Positions 1-51,183 of a stretch of 51,183 bases of DNA are shown here, piece by piece. Positions within the stretch are counted from its first letter, which is position 1. Each line of letters opens with the position of its first letter. Source of the DNA: a virus; IMG/VR virus record IMGVR_UViG_3300045988_161624, positions 1-51,183 of that record; one strand, given 5' to 3'. The position numbers and the translations under genes were made by a program. The notes below the pieces were generated by a model that saw only the letters and a list, made by a program, of their open reading frames with translations, ran no database searches and had not been told where the DNA came from.

Positions 1-55
1 TGTTAGTTGGGAAAGTGCACAAACAGCCGTAGCAAGAGTTACCAGTAATACCGTT
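1..55. repeat. 55-bp terminal overlap, identical to 51129..51183 (circular closure signature)
   Basis: Direct comparison: tgttagttgggaaagtgcacaaacagccgtagcaagagttaccagtaataccgtt occurs at both window ends. Confidence 0.95.
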
Positions 56-916: not shown

Positions 917-1456
917 ATGTCACAAACGTTAGTAGATTTTTCAGGAAATCCTTCTGGTGCAGAGCTTATGGATGATTATCTGACACCAATGCAAGAAAAC
1001 ATTTTAACATCTAACAGTGGCACAACTCGTCCTGATTATGCCAAAGAAGGAACTAAATGGATTGATAAAACTCAAACCCCTTGGCTTTTAAAACTTTATG
1101 ACGGTTCACAAGATATTGTTATCGGAGAACTTGACCCTAACAAACATTCTTTTGTAGCAACAGACCCGATGACGACAGCGGGTGATTTGATTGTTGAAGG
1201 TGATGCTGGTATACCCGTACGATTGGCTGCGGGAACTGCCGGACATGTTCTAACTTCAAACGGCCCGGGAACTTTACCGAGTTATCAGTTAGGTGTTTAC
1301 GCAAATACTTATTTAAGTAATTTAACTGACGGAGGTAATACTGTTATTGATAATCGGGCAACAGGTGTTATAGATAACCGTTTTCTAACTGTTAACGAAT
1401 TGCCAGATAATCCAGTATCTGGAACTTTTTATTTTATTGAAGAAGAGGAAGCTTAA
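917..1456 (+). CDS. tail fibre protein (small, adaptor type)
   Basis: ATG overlaps the J-like stop (TAAATG). Motif TAGDLIVEGDAGIPVRLAAGTAGHVLTSNGPG resembles the GDLL..G.G...RL..G..GQVL motif of phage fibre proteins. Position is directly after gpJ. Confidence 0.6.
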   Translation: MSQTLVDFSGNPSGAELMDDYLTPMQENILTSNSGTTRPDYAKEGTKWIDKTQTPWLLKLYDGSQDIVIGELDPNKHSFVATDPMTTAGDLIVEGDAGIPVRLAAGTAGHVLTSNGPGTLPSYQLGVYANTYLSNLTDGGNTVIDNRATGVIDNRFLTVNELPDNPVSGTFYFIEEEEA

Positions 1457-3552
1457 TGTCTTTGTATGTAGCAAAAGAGGACGGTTCTATCAAAAAAATC
1501 AGAGACAAAGGAACTTTCGGTATTTACAACGGTTCGAAGCCAATTACAAAAATATACACGGAAAGAAAAAAAAATGGTGTATCATACATCCCGCATGATA
1601 TTGATTTTGAAATCGTGAACGGAACGACGCCGACGCTGCATGCCGGTAGCGAAGTCTGGGTTCCTTACGGAAAGGCCGCTCCGGCTCTTAGTGTCGGCGA
1701 CAGTCTGAACAGCGGCATAATCACTGCCATTAGTTGGGATGGTAGTAGACTTTTTTACAAGGTGCGATATGATACGGATTTAAGCATTGATGTTACAAAT
1801 GACCCGGCAAGTGCGGAGCTTGTTAATTCAATCTCTGCGACGCATAATTTCTGGTGGTTTGCTTTCCACTGTAGTCAAGACACGGCACCGAGCAATTTCG
1901 GACATTATGCTTTGTGGTGGGATTCGAGTACAAATATTGTCAAATTTACAATTGATTCAGGTGCAACGTGGCAAAATTATGCGTCCCTTCCGATTGGCGT
2001 TTTTACAATGGCAGGGACCGGTGCCACGAAAAAGGTTAAACATGTTTTCAACGGTTTCGGATACTTAGGGTGTGAAATCTATGCGTTGCCGGGGGTTAAA
2101 GGACTAGAAGCCAATAGAATGGCGGAAGGGGGAGGATTTCTCAATACAGAAAGAGTTCTTGAAACTGTTATTTCTCGACAATTGTCTTTCAATAGGGAAA
2201 AATTCTATGGTTTAATTTTGAGTGACAGGAATGCTATTGATGGTGATAAATATATTGTAGCGGCGGAACTTCCTGACCCTGTACCAAGCGGTTATGTTTT
2301 TTGTTACAGGACTTCCGACAATACGCTTTGGTGGACGGAAAATATTGGCGTTTGGGTACGTGCGCATGGTTTTAAAATAGGTTGGTTTGGTTCTGATAGT
2401 AAAAAAATTACAGCTTTTCACGCAGACAATTCATTTGCAAAAGTTTATCAGTATAACTCTTACGAACCGAATACCGTGCTTTGTAATATTAGTAATGGTG
2501 CTTCAACAACTGTTCATATGAGAAAAGGTGTGTATTATATCCGTGCTCAGGGTGGCGGTGGTAGTGGTGGCACATTTGGTGACTTTTTTTGGGTCTGTGG
2601 TTCCGGCGGTGGCAGCGGTGCCGGTTTTGAAGGTTATATATTAGTTAAAAGAAATATTATCTGTAATGTTTCAACGGGTGCTGCTGTATCGTCAGGAAAG
2701 TTGTCGGTTAACGGCAATTCTACACAAATTGAAAATATGTTTATATTTGGTGGTGGAGAAGGAGGAAAGACCAATGAAGCCTTAGCTGTCGGTGGGGAGT
2801 TAACAGTTATTGCAAATGACGATTATGAGATATTAACGGCGAAATATCTGGGAAATGGAAATGGGACAAAAGTTGTTGACGGTAATAAGCGTTATGGCGG
2901 GGACAGTGTAATTTCGAAGGACGGTGGAGGCCTACCAAGTGCTAACGCTACCGCTCCTGGTGCTGGTGGTGGTGGATTTACCGGCTCTGGTATAAACGGT
3001 GGTGCTGGTGGTGCCGGCGAATGTCTTATCCAATATATCGGCTATGAACCCGAGGGGGGGGGGGTAACTAACCTTGAGTATTTTAAGACCCCAACATTAA
3101 CTGGGTCAATAACCCCTGTTGCAGAGGGTAATATTGTCGTAACCTCAAGCTATAATAATACGAGTAGTTGGAACAATATGTGCAACAACAGCTATATTAT
3201 GAGGAATACTATTTCAACTAAAACCGACCAGGGTTATTGGCAGATGAATGGTTCATCCACTCAATGGCTGAATATTCATTTCCCTTACACACTGCTGATA
3301 AAAGAGTTGACGATTGCCAGTCGCCCGTCAGATAATTATTCTGGTACAGTTACAGCATATACTTCTAGTCATATGACTGTAAACATGGGTTCTGTTACAA
3401 CAAATAATCCAGCAACTAACTTCTTGCTGACACGAATCAATAACGGTGCGTTTGAAACATCCAATATCTATCTTAGAATTACAGATATGGCTGAATGGTA
3501 TGGATTACAAAATCTGCAAATAAAAGGTTATAAGGTCAAAAAAAATACTTAG
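1456..3552 (+). CDS. tail fibre / receptor-binding protein with glycine-rich domain and C-terminal discoidin-like (galactose-binding-like) domain
   Basis: 698 aa, ATGA-type overlap with the previous gene. Glycine-rich blocks QGGGGSGGTF, GSGGGSGAGFEGY and APGAGGGGFTGSGINGGAGGAGE. C-terminus YWQMNGSSTQWLNIHFP..LIKELTIASRP. Position supports the call. Confidence 0.7.
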   Translation: MSLYVAKEDGSIKKIRDKGTFGIYNGSKPITKIYTERKKNGVSYIPHDIDFEIVNGTTPTLHAGSEVWVPYGKAAPALSVGDSLNSGIITAISWDGSRLFYKVRYDTDLSIDVTNDPASAELVNSISATHNFWWFAFHCSQDTAPSNFGHYALWWDSSTNIVKFTIDSGATWQNYASLPIGVFTMAGTGATKKVKHVFNGFGYLGCEIYALPGVKGLEANRMAEGGGFLNTERVLETVISRQLSFNREKFYGLILSDRNAIDGDKYIVAAELPDPVPSGYVFCYRTSDNTLWWTENIGVWVRAHGFKIGWFGSDSKKITAFHADNSFAKVYQYNSYEPNTVLCNISNGASTTVHMRKGVYYIRAQGGGGSGGTFGDFFWVCGSGGGSGAGFEGYILVKRNIICNVSTGAAVSSGKLSVNGNSTQIENMFIFGGGEGGKTNEALAVGGELTVIANDDYEILTAKYLGNGNGTKVVDGNKRYGGDSVISKDGGGLPSANATAPGAGGGGFTGSGINGGAGGAGECLIQYIGYEPEGGGVTNLEYFKTPTLTGSITPVAEGNIVVTSSYNNTSSWNNMCNNSYIMRNTISTKTDQGYWQMNGSSTQWLNIHFPYTLLIKELTIASRPSDNYSGTVTAYTSSHMTVNMGSVTTNNPATNFLLTRINNGAFETSNIYLRITDMAEWYGLQNLQIKGYKVKKNT
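3054..3064 (+). repeat. G11 homopolymer tract inside the tail-fibre CDS, followed by TAACTAA
   Basis: Counted: g3054-g3064. In-frame reading is GAG GGG GGG GGG GTA ACT AAC. G10 gives an immediate TAA and G12 gives GGT AAC TAA. Confidence 0.95.
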
Positions 3553-3812
3553 TTAATGAACCGTCAGTAGAGCCGACAGAGCCAACTTATTACTGTTATG
3601 ATTACGACACGTTGGACGGTTATTTCTATACTTTAGGTAAGGCCGTCGTGGGTAGTACAGTTTTAAGAACAAGCGACAACGCGGTAACGACGTTACCAGA
3701 CAATTTGTCCGCTAACAACGACGTTTCAATAACTGCGGTCAACGGCGATGTACTTACTTTAGGACCTTACTCTTTTACGGCGACGCGATACCCAGCCGGA
3801 GATATTTATTAA
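3534..3812 (+). other. -1-frame open extension past the tail-fibre stop (includes track ORF 3612..3812), entered at an A8 tract
   Basis: Frame 0 is open from 3534 to the TAA at 3810-3812. A8 run at 3538-3545 (A AAA AAT). The track ORF starts at TTG with no SD. Confidence 0.35.
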
Positions 3813-3956
3813 AAAAAGCTCTGCGGAATCTACCTAAGAGCTAGCAAAACCGTGGCATTTATATTGAGTTTGAAGAGGTGTAAAAACTTATTATACAATT
3901 TAAAACTTGATTAATAAATAAAAGCTTGTTAAAATATTATTCATGGAGGTATTTAT

Positions 3957-4599: not shown

Positions 4600-5001
4600 A
4601 TGTTTGAAAATAATACTTTGAATCAATATAACCCAAATAATCAAAGTTTTATCGGCTTTGTACAAAACGGAAAAATATTTAATTCTTATGGACAGCAACT
4701 CGGTTATATCACAGATGAATATAATAAAGCTATTGAAACGGCTAAAGGTTTTCAACAAAAATTAATAGAAGCCGGAATACTTGTAAAACCTAAAACACCT
4801 GAAGAAATAAATCAGGAATTGCAAGAAACATTAAAACAGACCCAAACGATGATGACGGAGATGTCCAATACTATTATTTCATTAAACGAAAAAGTCAATA
4901 GATTAGAGGAGAAGAAAGATGTTCAACAAGCAATCAATCCTGTCAGCGGCAGGACGATTCTTACCACAAGAAAAGATTCAACTCCTAAGTCAAGCGTATG
5001 A
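4600..5001 (+). CDS. hypothetical coiled-coil protein
   Basis: AGGGAG SD upstream of the ATG. Heptad-like C-terminal half. No recognisable motif. Confidence 0.5.
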   Translation: MFENNTLNQYNPNNQSFIGFVQNGKIFNSYGQQLGYITDEYNKAIETAKGFQQKLIEAGILVKPKTPEEINQELQETLKQTQTMMTEMSNTIISLNEKVNRLEEKKDVQQAINPVSGRTILTTRKDSTPKSSV

Positions 5002-5266
5002 TTTTGCTAATAAAATAACTGACATTACGCAAAACCCGAAAGAAGCTTTAGAAAAAGCCGGTGTTACTCGAGAAGATTTGGAAAAAGCGAAAAAACTTAT
5101 AAACAATCCTATGGCTGGTTTTTTTCTCGGTGATAAAAAACAATCAGTCATTGACGGATTAAATAGAGCCGAATCGTTATTCGATAAACAAGTTAACTCA
5201 TTATCTGAACAAGCCCCGGTTAATGAGTTAGAGCAATTGCAAGCTAATCTTGCAAGGCTTAAGTAA
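4919..5266 (+). CDS. hypothetical protein
   Basis: ATG preceded by GGAGAAG. Overlaps the previous ORF by 83 nt. Confidence 0.5.
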   Translation: MFNKQSILSAAGRFLPQEKIQLLSQAYDFANKITDITQNPKEALEKAGVTREDLEKAKKLINNPMAGFFLGDKKQSVIDGLNRAESLFDKQVNSLSEQAPVNELEQLQANLARLK

Positions 5267-5291
5267 TGTCGGGCTTAACGGAGAATATATA

Positions 5292-5867
5292 ATGGATAAA
5301 GAATCTTATAGTTGGGGAGGGATTGGTTTTCTTGCCTTGTTCTTCCTGATTATCATTGCTTTTTGGGGCCGTGGTGGTAACGGTTTTGGTTGGGGTAATA
5401 ACTGCGGTAACGGTTTTGCCCCTTTTGGTGATGGTATTGGTTTCGGTGCTTCTAGTTATGGTTTCCAGAATTATCGTGCAACCTGTGATGCTGAAAAATC
5501 TGAAATCATCAATACCGCCCGTACTCAGTATCTGGTAGAACAGCAGGCTGCTGGCACTCGTGAGCTGGTTAATGCAACGGCTAATGCAACTCAGACCAAA
5601 ATTGATTTTTATGCTTATCAGGCAGAACGTGACAAAGTTGCTGACCGTGACCGTAGAATTATGTCTTTGGAAAATCAGCTGTTTATGAAAGACCAGCTTG
5701 CAGCGTTGACGGCTTCAATTGCTGATATTCGTTGCAACATGCTTACCCGTCCGAATATTACCGGGGTTGGTGCGGTTTGCCCGAATGCTGGTGTTTTGAA
5801 CGGTTTAGGAATTGACCGTTTCACTGGTTGCGGCTGTGGTTGCAACGGTAATAACGTTCTGGTTTAA
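5292..5867 (+). CDS. membrane-anchored Gly/Asn/Phe-rich protein with coiled coil and Cys-Gly C-terminus
   Basis: Internal ATG at 5292 after GGAG. TM segment GGIGFLALFFLIIIAFWG, then GGNGFGWGNNCGNGFAPFGDGIGFGASSYGF. C-terminus GCGCGCNGNNVLV. Confidence 0.6.
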   Translation: MDKESYSWGGIGFLALFFLIIIAFWGRGGNGFGWGNNCGNGFAPFGDGIGFGASSYGFQNYRATCDAEKSEIINTARTQYLVEQQAAGTRELVNATANATQTKIDFYAYQAERDKVADRDRRIMSLENQLFMKDQLAALTASIADIRCNMLTRPNITGVGAVCPNAGVLNGLGIDRFTGCGCGCNGNNVLV

Positions 5868-7316: not shown

Positions 7317-7898
7317 ATGATTTATCTGATTTCATTTATAATTGTCGCGATTTCGGCGTTGTTGTGGCGCATTCGCGGCGGACTTTGGAAAGAATATATT
7401 CCGGAAAATAAAATCTGGTATGCGCTTTTTTTCGGCATTTTCGGGTATTTCTATTTTGGAAACAGTCTTGAGAAAGCCATTGTTGGCGGCATTGCCTGTT
7501 TCACGTCTTATAAGCTTTACGGCTGGGGCTTATATCTTGGCAGATTATTGGAGGGCGGCCAGCTTAACCCGAATTTAGTACAATATCGGGAGTGTGAGCT
7601 GATAGACGATTTGCTCTATTCATGCCGAATTACTTTCAAGGGAAAGACCTTCTGGTTGTATGAAAATCCAAAATGGTTCGGCTTTTGTGGTACGACGCTG
7701 ACCGGCCTCATCATCACGTTTCTGTGGGGCTTGTACTTCGGCAGCCTGCCGCTGATGCTCTCAGGCCTCGGGATGGGCATCTGCTATTGGTTGGGCGGGA
7801 AGCTTGAGAAACTAAAAGCGCTGGGAAAATCCGGCTGGAACTGGGGCGAATGGATTTTCGGTGCATATGCAGGAGCATGTCTGGTTTGGATGATTTAA
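7317..7898 (+). CDS. polytopic membrane protein, putative holin
   Basis: Several hydrophobic segments. Abuts the endolysin start. Confidence 0.45.
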   Translation: MIYLISFIIVAISALLWRIRGGLWKEYIPENKIWYALFFGIFGYFYFGNSLEKAIVGGIACFTSYKLYGWGLYLGRLLEGGQLNPNLVQYRECELIDDLLYSCRITFKGKTFWLYENPKWFGFCGTTLTGLIITFLWGLYFGSLPLMLSGLGMGICYWLGGKLEKLKALGKSGWNWGEWIFGAYAGACLVWMI

Positions 7899-47556: not shown

Positions 47557-47951
47557 TGTGGAGTGACAAATATATATCAATACCTTTTGCAGATCATGGT
47601 CGTTCTAAAAACGGCTGTGATTGTTGGGGCTTGGTAACTGTCGTATATAAAGAAAAATTTAATGTTGATTTACCTCTGTTATTAGACTATGATAGCATAA
47701 AAGACGTTCGGCATATAACTACCTTGTGCAAAAATGAGTGTGAGAATTGGCATGAAATACCTAAAGGCGAAGAACAAGCTTACGATGTACTTGTTTTTAA
47801 CATTTTGGGCGCTCCATGTCATGTTGCGCTTGTGGTTGAAAAAGGATTAATGCTACATACGGAAAAAGGGATTGGAACGCATATAAGCGAGTACAATCGA
47901 GATAAACAATGGTGTTTAAGGCTTGCAGGGGTTTACAGATATGTTAAATGA
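47556..47951 (+). CDS. NlpC/P60 peptidase-type tail protein (gpK-like)
   Basis: TAATG overlap start. NGCDCWGLV catalytic Cys context and CHVALVV His. Confidence 0.75.
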   Translation: MWSDKYISIPFADHGRSKNGCDCWGLVTVVYKEKFNVDLPLLLDYDSIKDVRHITTLCKNECENWHEIPKGEEQAYDVLVFNILGAPCHVALVVEKGLMLHTEKGIGTHISEYNRDKQWCLRLAGVYRYVK

Positions 47952-50900
47952 AGACATAATTGTTCAAAAATCTGTTTTGCCGTTTAGGCAAGATTTTGAA
48001 ACCCTGCATCTCGAAAATTGCAAAACACCCAGGGAAATTGTCAATAAACTTGTACCTTTTAATTTTGTTGATTGTAGACTTGTTGTAACGCTCGACGGTG
48101 AAATATTACCGGAAGAAAAATGGGGTCAACAACTTAAAAAAGGTCAGCTTGTAGGGCTTAATTATATCCCCACAGGAGGGGGTGACGGTGGTAAGAATGT
48201 TCTCACGGCTGTTGCGGTAATAGTTGCCGCTATAGCTATACCTGCTCTTGCAGGGAGTTTAGCTTTGATGGCCGGTAATGCTGCTGTAGCAGCAGGGGCA
48301 GGGGCGTTTGGTGCTGGTATAGGTGGTTTTACAGGATTGGCCGCGGCCGCTTATGCAGCAACATATGGAGTAGTAATGATCGGTGGGTCGATGTTGCTCT
48401 CTATGGCGACAAGTTCGCTTATGTCAACACCAAGTCAATCTTTTGGTACATCAAGTTATAAAGAATCTCAAACTCAATTTGTTGAGGGTGCTTCGAACGC
48501 TGTTAATAAATTCGGGGTTATACCGGTTAATTTGGGAACAAACAGAATGTTCCCTCCGCAAGCCGCACTTCCTTATACAGAGAGCAGTAGTAACGATCAA
48601 TATTGCCGTCAGTTATTTACTTATGGATACGGAAAAGTAAGTGTTGTTGAACGTAAATTAGGTGAAACAGCTTTAGACGAATATGATTATGTGGAAATTG
48701 AAGACAAGCTTGATGCAGATTTAAATTCCGGCACAAAATTGTATGCTAATGACGTGTATCAGGAAGACTTTAGCATTAAAGTTACAAAAGCTGAATCCCC
48801 TTTCACTCGCGTAACGCAGAAAGATTGTGACGAATGTATTTTGGATTTTACGTTTCAGGGATTAGTACAAGTTATTACTGCCGGTAAATATGCAGGATTA
48901 AAATTAAAAACTACCGTTCAATTTGAGGTTCAATACGCTCCGGTTAATACAGAAGATTGGAGTACGTCAATCAACGGTGCTACAATCAAAGAACAGTCGA
49001 TAACTGCTAATATAAGTGTTTATTTGTTATACAGATTTTTAAATACTTGGGTTTGCCGTCGTTATTTTCTTGCTTTAAATACACAAACCGGTGATATAAG
49101 TATTCATTCTGTTGATTCTAAAGTTAACAGACTTGAATATCCGTCTTTGTCTTCTGAATATGTTTATCTTGGTTATTATGAAAATGGTTCTTTTCATGAT
49201 TTAAGACAAAACCTTGTAGGCTCTTCGATTAAAAGTATCGATGATTTTGTTGTTACGACCGACGCTGCTGATAAATCAAACGCTTTGATAACTGTTGGAA
49301 GTGGTAGTATTCTTGGTACGACTTCAACAATGACAGTAACTGACGCAACTTCAAGAGTTTTAAGAGTTTCTCGGCGAATTGTTTTCCCGGTTAGAGGTCA
49401 ATATCAAATAAAAGTTACTCGTTTAACGAATGATTCGAATGATGAAGCTTTGTCGAATGATTCGTATTGGACAGCGTTAAAATCTATAACTTATCGGAAC
49501 CCGGTTAATTTTCCGGATATTTCCGGTACAGCTATAAGAATTAAAGCTACAGACCAGTTGAACGGTACTATATCGTCTTACAACGCCATTGTTTCAACTC
49601 TTATCAAATCTTATAATCCTGAAACAAATCTTTGGGAAAATGATGTTGCCAGCTCTAATCCGGCAGACATTTTCAGATATGTTTTACAGTCTCCGGCTTT
49701 TGCAAAGCATGAACAAATTACTGATGATAAAATTGATTTGGAAAAGCTGAAAGAGTGGTGGATTTATTGTAATTCATTGAATCTTACGTTTAATAAAGTT
49801 GTAGATTCAGATACAAGTATTGACGATGTTTTAAATGATATTTGTGCTGCGGGTGTTGCAACATTATCAAAAGTTAATAATATTTTTAGTGTTGTTATCG
49901 ATAATGAACGCCCTTATGTTAAAGGGTTGGTAACACCTCGTAACAGTTGGGATTATAAAGGAAATATCAGTTATCCAGAACTTCCTGATGCTTTGCGTGT
50001 TGAATTTCGCAACGCTGAAGCAGGTTACGAAACTGACGAACGCATTGTTTACAGAGACGGATTTGACGAAAGCAATGCTAAATTATTTGAACGTTTGGAA
50101 TTTGCGAGTTGTACAAATGCTGATTTAGCTTATTGGTATGGTAGACGTTATTTTGCTACGGCTTTGTTGCAACCGGAAACCCATTCATTCAAAATGGATT
50201 TCGAACATCTTACTTTTAACCGCGGCGACCGTATCAACCTTGTTAACGATGTTATTCTTGTCGGTGTCGGGCAGGGGCGTATTAAAGAGTTGCTTATAGA
50301 CGATACAGGTAATGTTACAGGTTTTGTTATTGACGATGAGGTAAATATTCCGACAACGAAGAATTTTGCAGTTCGTATTCGTGATAATAATGCCAAAGGT
50401 TTTAATTATTATTTGCTGGAGCAATTTGTCGGAACCAGTGATACATTTAATTTCGCACAACCTTTAACGGCTGAAAATGCCCCCTCCATCGGTAGTCTTT
50501 GTGCATTTGTTGAAGACGGCAAAGAGCTTGATTTAATCATAACACAGATAAAAACCGCCAGTAATGAAACGGCCACAATTACCGCTGTAGACTATTCCCC
50601 GGCACGTTTTGACCCGATTGAAGAGTTTCCTGAATGGACAAGCAACATTACAATTCCCGGAGATTTTTACAAACCTTATGCTCCTGAATTAAATGGAGAA
50701 ATTCAATCAGACGAATCTGTCATGATTAGAAATTCCGATGGTTCTTTAACTTCGGTTATGATTATACCTCTTAAAAATATTAATGAAAGTTCAGTAATTC
50801 CGGTAATACAGATGAGAATTACAGGTGCTACTGAATGGTTTGTACCAAATACTTTGAAAAATGATTCGAACGAACTAGTTTTAACAGGTCTTAGTGACGG

Positions 50901-51183
50901 GTCGTATTATGATATAAGCATTCGTTATCAACGTCAAACAGGTTTGCAACTGCTTTCGGATGCTTTGTTTATGAACAATGTTAAATTTATCGGCGGTTCA
51001 ACACCTCCTAAAGATGTTAAAAACTTTAGGGTTACTGTTACAAACGGATTGGCTCTTTTTGAATGGACCCCAAATGATGACATCGATATATCTCATTATG
51101 TAATCAAGTATTCTTTAGATACAAAAGATGTTAGTTGGGAAAGTGCACAAACAGCCGTAGCAAGAGTTACCAGTAATACCGTT
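47941..51183 (+). CDS. gpI-like domain fused to gpJ-like central tail fibre / host specificity protein (continues at 1..916, about 1367 aa in total)
   Basis: Hand translation shows no stop across 47941-48720 or 50101-50290. No stop-bounded + strand ORF of 60 aa or more is listed in this frame up to the window end. The N-terminus has a Gly/Ala-rich hydrophobic segment and NKFGVIPVNLGTNRMF (gpI-like). Later, FASCTNADLAYWYGRRYFATALLQPETHSF is gpJ/Phage-tail_3-like. Confidence 0.8.
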   Translation, partial: MLNEDIIVQKSVLPFRQDFETLHLENCKTPREIVNKLVPFNFVDCRLVVTLDGEILPEEKWGQQLKKGQLVGLNYIPTGGGDGGKNVLTAVAVIVAAIAIPALAGSLALMAGNAAVAAGAGAFGAGIGGFTGLAAAAYAATYGVVMIGGSMLLSMATSSLMSTPSQSFGTSSYKESQTQFVEGASNAVNKFGVIPVNLGTNRMFPPQAALPYTESSSNDQYCRQLFTYGYGKVSVVERKLGETALDEYDYVEIEDKLDADLNSGTKLYANDVYQEDFSIKVTKAESPFTRVTQKDCDECILDFTFQGLVQVITAGKYAGLKLKTTVQFEVQYAPVNTEDWSTSINGATIKEQSITANISVYLLYRFLNTWVCRRYFLALNTQTGDISIHSVDSKVNRLEYPSLSSEYVYLGYYENGSFHDLRQNLVGSSIKSIDDFVVTTDAADKSNALITVGSGSILGTTSTMTVTDATSRVLRVSRRIVFPVRGQYQIKVTRLTNDSNDEALSNDSYWTALKSITYRNPVNFPDISGTAIRIKATDQLNGTISSYNAIVSTLIKSYNPETNLWENDVASSNPADIFRYVLQSPAFAKHEQITDDKIDLEKLKEWWIYCNSLNLTFNKVVDSDTSIDDVLNDICAAGVATLSKVNNIFSVVIDNERPYVKGLVTPRNSWDYKGNISYPELPDALRVEFRNAEAGYETDERIVYRDGFDESNAKLFERLEFASCTNADLAYWYGRRYFATALLQPETHSFKMDFEHLTFNRGDRINLVNDVILVGVGQGRIKELLIDDTGNVTGFVIDDEVNIPTTKNFAVRIRDNNAKGFNYYLLEQFVGTSDTFNFAQPLTAENAPSIGSLCAFVEDGKELDLIITQIKTASNETATITAVDYSPARFDPIEEFPEWTSNITIPGDFYKPYAPELNGEIQSDESVMIRNSDGSLTSVMIIPLKNINESSVIPVIQMRITGATEWFVPNTLKNDSNELVLTGLSDGSYYDISIRYQRQTGLQLLSDALFMNNVKFIGGSTPPKDVKNFRVTVTNGLALFEWTPNDDIDISHYVIKYSLDTKDVSWESAQTAVARVTSNTV
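51129..51183. repeat. 55-bp terminal overlap, identical to 1..55
   Basis: Direct comparison. Confidence 0.95.

Follow-up and report, generated by a model that had tools for sequence, protein, structure and literature searches.

We analyzed a 51,183-nucleotide (nt) stretch of viral DNA, positions 1 to 51,183 of IMG/VR record IMGVR_UViG_3300045988_161624 (hereafter the window), and focused on its gene for a 698-amino-acid (aa) tail fiber, which contains a run of 11 guanines at the joint between two protein domains. From the sequence comparisons described below, we concluded that DNA-level slippage at repeats encoding the linkers of this fiber probably generates three heritable fiber architectures. 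The features that bear on this conclusion are listed here.

1456..3552, + strand: tail-fiber gene, 698 aa in its present state (G11, A8), from the list of open reading frames (ORFs)
2473..3039, + strand: glycine-rich fiber domain, residues ~340–528, the last folded domain of the short isoform and the only part modelled with confidence
3054..3064, + strand: G11 homopolymer, proposed switch 1, supplying the last base of E533, all of G534–G536 and the first base of V537, within a low-confidence linker
3065..3071, + strand: TAACTAA, a stop for each alternative frame (TAA right after G10; AAC TAA after G12)
3064..3549, + strand: C1 domain, V537–T698, predicted by AlphaFold2 and Foldseek to be all-beta and galactose-binding-domain-like (discoidin/CBM32/DOC-like)
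3538..3545, + strand: A8 homopolymer, proposed switch 2, four codons before the fiber stop (K V K K N T stop)
3546..3812, + strand: C2 module, ~87 aa (YLVNEPSVEPTEPTYYCYD…AGDIY stop), in the −1 frame relative to the fiber, from three-frame translation

Under the mechanism that we propose, the gene would be laid out as body, linker, C1, linker and C2, with each linker encoded by a mutable simple repeat. Slipped-strand mispairing during replication of the phage DNA would alter the G run by one base in either direction. G lengths of 3n+2 (5, 8, 11) would fuse the lectin-like C1 to the glycine-rich fiber, and any other length would meet a stop in TAACTAA, leaving a short fiber that ends a few residues past its last folded domain. 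The second repeat, an A run here and (TC)n in a sister lineage, would decide whether the ~87–110-aa C2 is fused as well. A clonal lineage would keep yielding virions with three forms of fiber (body, body plus C1, body plus C1 and C2), which may amount to bet-hedging in adsorption or host range. The rate of slippage, its reversibility within a population, the assembly of both isoforms and any phenotype are what we infer from the comparisons.

Anatomy and length variation of the G tract

The anatomy of the joints, the polymorphism of tract length on identical backgrounds and the intact state of the downstream modules were observed directly. In the window, the first tract is read in frame as GAG GGG GGG GGG GTA ACT AAC (E533 G G G V T N). 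A tract of ten would read GGG TAA and end the protein at 536 aa, and a tract of twelve would read GGT AAC TAA and end it at 538 aa; both products would lack V537–T698 (162 aa). The original prediction, made from the window’s letters alone, had described a G11 run followed by TAACTAA inside the 698-aa fiber gene, and both the sequence and the reading frame bore this out. Its start coordinate of 3054 was correct and the end is 3071 rather than 3070; likewise, both alternative frames do stop as claimed, with a loss of 162 aa and not 163.

The tract lies in an AT-rich setting, again as predicted: guanine-plus-cytosine (GC) content is 39.2%, and in the 51,183 bases every other run of G or C is at most six long. 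GGG is the rarest glycine codon, accounting for 8 of the 88 fiber glycine codons outside the tract and for 11.7% genome-wide. Given the peptide EGGG, the probability of the codons GAG GGG GGG GGG was ~5e-4 from codon usage, and only 0.4% of coding positions are followed, in each of the two alternative frames, by a stop within two codons. The G tract is a statistical outlier, not a product of chance.

We compared the joint with its counterparts in relatives, which are human-gut metagenome contigs. All of this comparative evidence comes from assemblies, and the tract counts are counts of non-redundant database proteins rather than of independent samples. At the DNA level, G runs of 3, 5, 7, 8, 9, 10, 11, 12 and 13 were found at the same codon position. 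The conservation that the original prediction had proposed to look for in related genomes was found in all 17 distinct tract-bearing relatives (17/17): in each, the G run is unbroken and TAACTAA comes after it without variation. In some 30 others the run is interrupted. The codons flanking the tract varied synonymously (TAT/TAC, CCC/CCA, AAC/AAT/AAG, CTT/CTA), and the glycine codons adjoining it were GGT, GGC or GGA. Among 191 distinct proteins, in-frame states comprised G5 (1), G8 (34) and G11 (41), and out-of-frame states comprised G7 (1), G9 (2), G10 (5), G12 (6) and G13 (3). C1 was fused to the fiber only at lengths of 3n+2. Out-of-frame copies were commoner around the longer tract (14, against 41 in-frame at G11) than around G8 (3, against 34), as would be expected if mutability rises with length. 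The homologues fell into length classes of ~530–544 aa, ~693–709 aa (the window’s class) and ~780–808 aa, with the shortest class ending at ...YEPEGG, YEPEGGG, YEPEGGGN or YEPEGGGGN.

The most direct evidence came from fibers that differ in tract state on the same background. Identical bodies of 530–538 aa carried EPEGGG followed by a stop (G10), EPEGGGGN followed by a stop (G12) or read-through (G11), and these endings support the contingency-locus-like truncation by single-base slippage that had been predicted. Protein P0005, from a 51,164-bp NCBI record, matched the window’s fiber at 532/532 body residues and ended in EPEGGGGN (G12). Proteins P0130 (G11) and P0127 (G10) shared 538/538 body residues. 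Five further proteins (P0010, P0145, P0146, P0147, P0150) shared 530/530 body residues and together represented the states G11/A9, G12, G13, G11/A8 and G11/A10. The contigs of this last set were Logan assemblies of runs SRR13668442-69, all from one study; they showed 0 mismatches over 3.3–7.6 kb, and their sole differences were one or two G’s in the G tract (11/12/13) and one A in the A tract (9/10). States also recurred across runs, with G12 present in 4 runs and G11 in 10 contigs.

Every out-of-frame locus retained an intact C1 or C1+C2 ORF downstream, 165–253 codons long, and the cluster of stand-alone C1+C2 ORFs (P0193) had 35 member sequences. Because these downstream C1 frames are intact, the out-of-frame copies are not decaying. 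The fiber ORF has three marks of a contingency locus: uninterrupted mutable repeats (G11 at 3054–3064, A8 at 3538–3545), a frame shift and altered product upon gain or loss of one unit, with the corresponding proteins present in databases, and repeat-length polymorphism between otherwise identical genomes. The intact downstream ORFs, together with contigs that break off inside the tract, hint that switching within one population may be frequent and reversible.

We also considered an independent start for C1 in the out-of-frame genomes. The ATG chosen by gene callers is part of TAT GAA; several relatives have TAC GAA instead, so this ATG does not provide a general route and was rejected.

Mosaicism among relatives breaks at the tract. 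Two contigs (L021 and L023) were 85% identical in the body and 98.5% in C1; for L002 and L053 the corresponding values were 85% and 96%, and for the window and L002 they were 95% and 89%. Judged from these identities, the domain joint at the tract is apparently also a recombination boundary.

Fiber domains and the repeat at the second joint

The full-length AlphaFold model was confident only at residues ~340–528, where the predicted local distance difference test score (pLDDT) was 80–95. Residues 529–558, including those encoded by the tract, had pLDDT of 21–34 and look in this model like a flexible linker. The best Foldseek match of the fiber model in the PDB was the fiber of cyanophage Pam3 (7ypx_A; E 5.9e-7, 26% identity, 239 aligned columns), so that the glycine-rich domain of this phage matches 239 of the 250 residues of the Pam3 protein. 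The Pam3 fiber is only those 250 aa, without C1 or C2, and corresponds to the terminal domain of the short isoform. Assignment of the gene as a tail fiber follows from this match, which falls in the region of pLDDT 80–95, together with its place in the tail module.

In a large class of homologues the natural C-terminus is ...IQYIRYEP, and the sequence after the stop is unrelated; in another class the C-terminus is ...KAVGAY. Products of G10 and G12 would end 4 and 6 residues beyond the natural YEP end, right after the Pam3-like domain, and comparison with these homologues indicates that the short form is probably native-like and complete as a fiber. The original prediction had proposed an ON/OFF switch. 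A length switch is supported, but the natural ...YEP ends and the match of the glycine-rich domain to the whole Pam3 fiber point to a switch between short and long forms rather than between presence and absence.

The identity of C1 is less firmly predicted. Its AlphaFold2 model is an all-beta sandwich with pLDDT 57, and its Foldseek matches in the PDB include APC10/DOC, IFT25, CBM32, the muskelin discoidin domain and PITH (E 1e-5 to 1e-4, TM-score ~0.5). With this model of pLDDT 57, 54 PDB matches had E of at most 1e-3, and among the matches listed the galactose-binding-domain-like fold predominates. The window’s C1 had no Pfam match above the gathering score, and the C1 domains of relatives had only sub-threshold matches to F5_F8_type_C, F5_F8_type_C_2 or PITH. 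A C1-like region was present in 24 representatives found by an exhaustive HMMER search, among them several other phage fiber proteins that have a T7-tail-fiber N-terminus and a sub-threshold F5/8-type-C match over the same stretch. When C1 alone was used in a word-index search, only split-off C1 ORFs were returned. The predicted description of this C-terminal domain as discoidin-like thus stands tentatively: the Foldseek matches make it plausible, but the model has low confidence and the Pfam search gave no match. C1 may act as the receptor-binding domain of the fiber.

The next domain joint carries a further repeat switch, the A8 run at 3538–3545, which the original prediction missed. In the window, C2 is unfused and was called there as a 66-aa ORF with a TTG start (3612–3812), and its sequence is the C-terminus of homologues of ~780–791 aa. 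Relatives with A9 are fused, reading VKKKYLVNEPS… into C2; A10 gives VKKKILS and a stop, and A12 is fused again. A sister lineage carries a TC-rich dinucleotide repeat, (TC)n, at the joint where the A run is found here. Two contigs of that lineage (L069 and L071) were 99.75% identical over 4.39 kb, and their sole indel was one TC unit (2 nt) at the joint; L069 encodes an 805-aa fused protein, whereas L071 encodes a 707-aa protein and a 94-aa ORF. Searches of C2 against Pfam and PDB sequences gave no match.

That sister lineages use two repeat types at one domain joint would be difficult to account for unless a mutable joint is selected for. We regard as evenly balanced the wider proposition that this gut-siphovirus family carries two independent repeat switches at successive fiber linkers, with three architectures available to each clonal genome, the second-linker repeat replaced between sister lineages and the G run kept pure against codon bias.

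A hairpin (AGCTCT...AGAGCT) lies at 3813–3850, after the C2-frame stop, and nothing comparable follows the fiber stop at 3552, which suggests that C2 belongs to the fiber transcript. A scan for promoters and terminators around the fiber gene gave nothing informative. In L069, an IS1595-family transposase gene and a KilA-N/BstA_C gene (4883–5418) lie ~1 kb downstream of the fiber, after two small ORFs; L071, despite its 99.75% identity to L069, has a different set of small ORFs downstream of the fiber. The window’s only A9 (1566–1574) is also within the fiber gene, at codons 37–40 (ERKKNG). It is confined to the ‘MSLYVAKEDG’ N-terminal allele and showed no length variants among relatives; a length shift there would abolish the whole fiber.

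Alternative explanations

Several observations weigh against a slippage switch. In-frame states dominate (76, versus 17 out of frame), and runs of 11–13 are the most prone to miscalling or to stutter in library polymerase chain reaction (PCR), so some of the calls that differ by one base are possibly technical. Two contigs of the same phage strain (L066 and L068) terminate inside the G tract, which is consistent with either length heterogeneity within the sample or poor read quality. The ~30 proteins with an interrupted run (EGWGVT, EGKVT, EGRVT, EGEGGVT, EGGVVT) indicate that the tract is dispensable; the interruption is a single-base change, with W, R, E or V replacing one G, and would stabilize the long form. 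One relative (L020, OHTG01000193.1; 5106–5125) has only G3, reading GAG GGT AAC TAA, which is out of frame and would permit no fast switch. In this relative C1 and C2 are fused (A9) in an intact frame, and the G3 arose either by a large deletion within the tract or through a collapse in the assembly. Finally, the C1 model is of low confidence (pLDDT 57), and the assembly of the short fiber and receptor binding by C1 are predictions.

Recoding could produce short and long fibers from a single DNA sequence: RNA polymerase slippage or ribosomal frameshifting at the G and A runs would set a fixed ratio of short to long product, and DNA length differences would be incidental. Runs of A8–A10 are within the length range of known bacterial RNA polymerase slippage. 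Glycine transfer RNA could re-pair in any frame on a pure G run, with G10 placing the stop in the ribosomal A site, and C2 is in the −1 frame directly after C AAA AAA AAT. The intact downstream modules of out-of-frame genomes would also fit residual expression. A programmed site keeps a fixed slippery sequence, however, whereas here the G run ranges from 3 to 13 and the A run from 8 to 12 (A8, A9, A10, A12), and one lineage has (TC)n instead. We found no stimulatory RNA structure downstream (folding energy relative to shuffled sequences, z = 0.10 for the A run and −0.81 for the G run), and the commonest genomes (G8 and G11) need no frameshift to make the long form. Because of the variable site lengths, the dinucleotide repeat and the lack of RNA structure, recoding cannot be the main design, and we consider it unlikely as the explanation for these joints. 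It may operate on top of DNA slippage, adding leakiness.

A plainer reading is that GGG codons form an ordinary glycine linker and that homopolymers were miscalled in short-read assemblies. The tract does fall in a low-confidence linker, most out-of-frame calls are one base away from the longest tract or two bases above it, contigs break at the tract, and the evidence is drawn from assemblies throughout. Nevertheless, the series G5/G8/G11 together with G7, G9 and G3 is not stutter around one true length, and the same variants recur in separate runs and contigs, as counted above. The 2-nt differences in (TC)n and the A9/A10 differences are not typical consensus errors of Illumina data, and a plain linker would explain neither the exclusive use of the rarest glycine codon nor the invariant double stop. 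We judge this reading quite improbable. A slimmer chance still, in our view very small, attaches to decay, in which the out-of-frame copies are dead-end pseudogenes of a fiber that is losing a dispensable domain. Homologues without C1 do exist (the YEP and KAVGAY classes), and the short G3 of L020 is out of frame. Against this, a full-length uninterrupted C1 or C1+C2 frame is present at all out-of-frame loci, C1 is 73–92% identical across the family, and out-of-frame and in-frame copies share identical bodies. DNA-level slippage at the two joints therefore remains the reading that we prefer.

Genome context and relation to known systems

The first 55 nt of the window (1–55) are identical to its last (51129–51183), which indicates a circular assembly with a genome of ~51,128 bp. 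Two genes precede the fiber gene.

47920..51183, + strand: gpJ-like central tail-tip protein, ~1375 aa, with a frame that is open to the window’s end and crosses the contig junction to 916
917..1456, + strand: 179-aa protein between the J-like and fiber genes (ORF list), with a weak PHROG match to a virion structural protein

The fiber is thus the second gene after the J-like gene. The orthologue of the gpJ-like protein in relatives carries PF24801 (FNIII-A_GpJ), and the position of the 179-aa gene is conserved in relatives (178 aa; L018, L053, L054, L058–L072). According to PHROG matches, the tail module is lambda-like, with a tape-measure protein, M/L/K-like minor tail proteins and the J-like tip upstream of the fiber. 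The genome also encodes a terminase, a portal and a major head protein, as well as the phage’s own family-A DNA polymerase, helicase, primase, exonuclease, Gp2.5-like single-stranded DNA-binding protein and DNA methyltransferase. No integrase was matched among the window proteins scanned against PHROGs.

The fiber had no match in 50,697 deposited phage genomes (INPHARED; megablast and tblastn), and its protein matched no family in Pfam or PHROGs. Its homologues fall into >120 protein clusters from human-gut metagenomes. The nearest capsid among cultured phages is that of Rhizobium phage P106B (55%). Searches for a host gave no relative of the capsid protein in 185,579 species genomes; only distant fiber fragments in gut metagenome-assembled genomes (MAGs), labelled Alphaproteobacteria, proteobacterium and Clostridia; and, by tblastx, mosaic sharing only. 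A 193-aa ORF at 7317–7898 had no PHROG match and was 79–86% identical (tblastx) to contigs of unrelated gut MAGs (L011, ‘proteobacterium’; L017, ‘Clostridia’; and L030), and so looks like a mobile module that is widely shared.

Another polyG was found in distantly related gut phage contigs of higher GC content, in the context GGCGGAAATCTA-Gn-AGCGTTGC with n = 7–13 (L006 3880; L038 2612 and 3377; L040 3376; L041 3379; L043 1923; L044 3377; L045 3377; L046 3378; L047 3376). It lies ~120 nt upstream of a glycine-rich fiber-like gene and switches a small ORF among three short C-terminal tails. Beyond the junction tracts and this second polyG, G or C runs of at least 7 numbered only three in 504 kb of fetched loci, in L017 and L029. 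The presence of a second variable polyG near a related glycine-rich fiber gene suggests that the strategy may be common in the gut virome.

Programmed ribosomal frameshifting is a familiar source of C-terminal additions to virion proteins, as in lambda G/GT, T7 10A/10B and the Ig-like domains on tail proteins of Listeria and lactococcal phages. Those cases resemble the present one in that a single locus gives a short and a C-terminally extended virion protein, the extension being a small module in the −1 frame that is rich in beta structure and may bind carbohydrate. They differ in that the shift site here has variable length, no stimulatory structure was found, and most genomes hard-wire the fusion in DNA. 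To our knowledge, repeat-driven switching of phage host-recognition proteins has been demonstrated experimentally only in Campylobacter phages; the other demonstrations concern other genes, in T-even phages.

Hypermutable polyG tracts are described in receptor-binding-protein genes of Campylobacter Fletchervirus phages (Sorensen et al. 2021, Cell Rep 35:109214, as reported in PMC10579305 and PMC10877375). As reported there, a long G run likewise sits in a host-recognition gene, and its length changes shift the frame and give mixed virion populations. Those proteins have no sequence relationship to the present fiber, given the lack of an INPHARED megablast or tblastn match; the fiber works alike but is not a member of that group. 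The present phage is a lambda-like human-gut siphovirus, whose host is probably not Campylobacter. Its tract also falls exactly at a domain joint and removes the terminal module, apparently not the whole protein, and another module is under the control of the second repeat.

In T2/T4 and other cultured phages, contingency loci were also demonstrated, and they were proposed to be widespread (Gomez, Barrick & Waters 2025 preprint, PMC12633550). These are homopolymers of at least 6 bases in phage genes, with reversible, high-rate gain and loss of bases that was read as bet-hedging. Most of them are runs of A, for example in agt and rIIA, and escape from host defense was shown by experiment; here, by contrast, the evidence is comparative, G, A and TC repeats are involved, and it is fiber architecture that is affected. 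A 2025 gut-phage paper lists polyG tracts merely as a possible determinant of host range (PMC12823448). Among other tropism switches, the invertible G/C segments of Mu/P1 and the diversity-generating retroelement of Bordetella phage BPP-1, as cited in PMC10579305, likewise confine heritable stochastic variation to the distal part of the fiber. The present variation arises from a change in repeat length, with no invertase, inverted repeats or reverse transcriptase involved. Phage contingency loci are already known; what is new here is their probable occurrence in an uncultured gut-siphovirus family, as a pair of switches at domain joints.

The claim is directly testable on existing public read sets. 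If it holds for this family of human-gut phages, which is abundant and uncultured, many truncated or split fiber genes in virome assemblies would represent one state of a switch, not an error or a pseudogene, with consequences for annotation and for the prediction of host range. A mutable linker between modules would also offer a simple, engineerable design for phages that hedge their receptor specificities. If the two-switch reading is correct, it would point to selection for mutability itself in a virus. Switching of this kind would help to explain how such phages persist beside hosts with varying surface structures.

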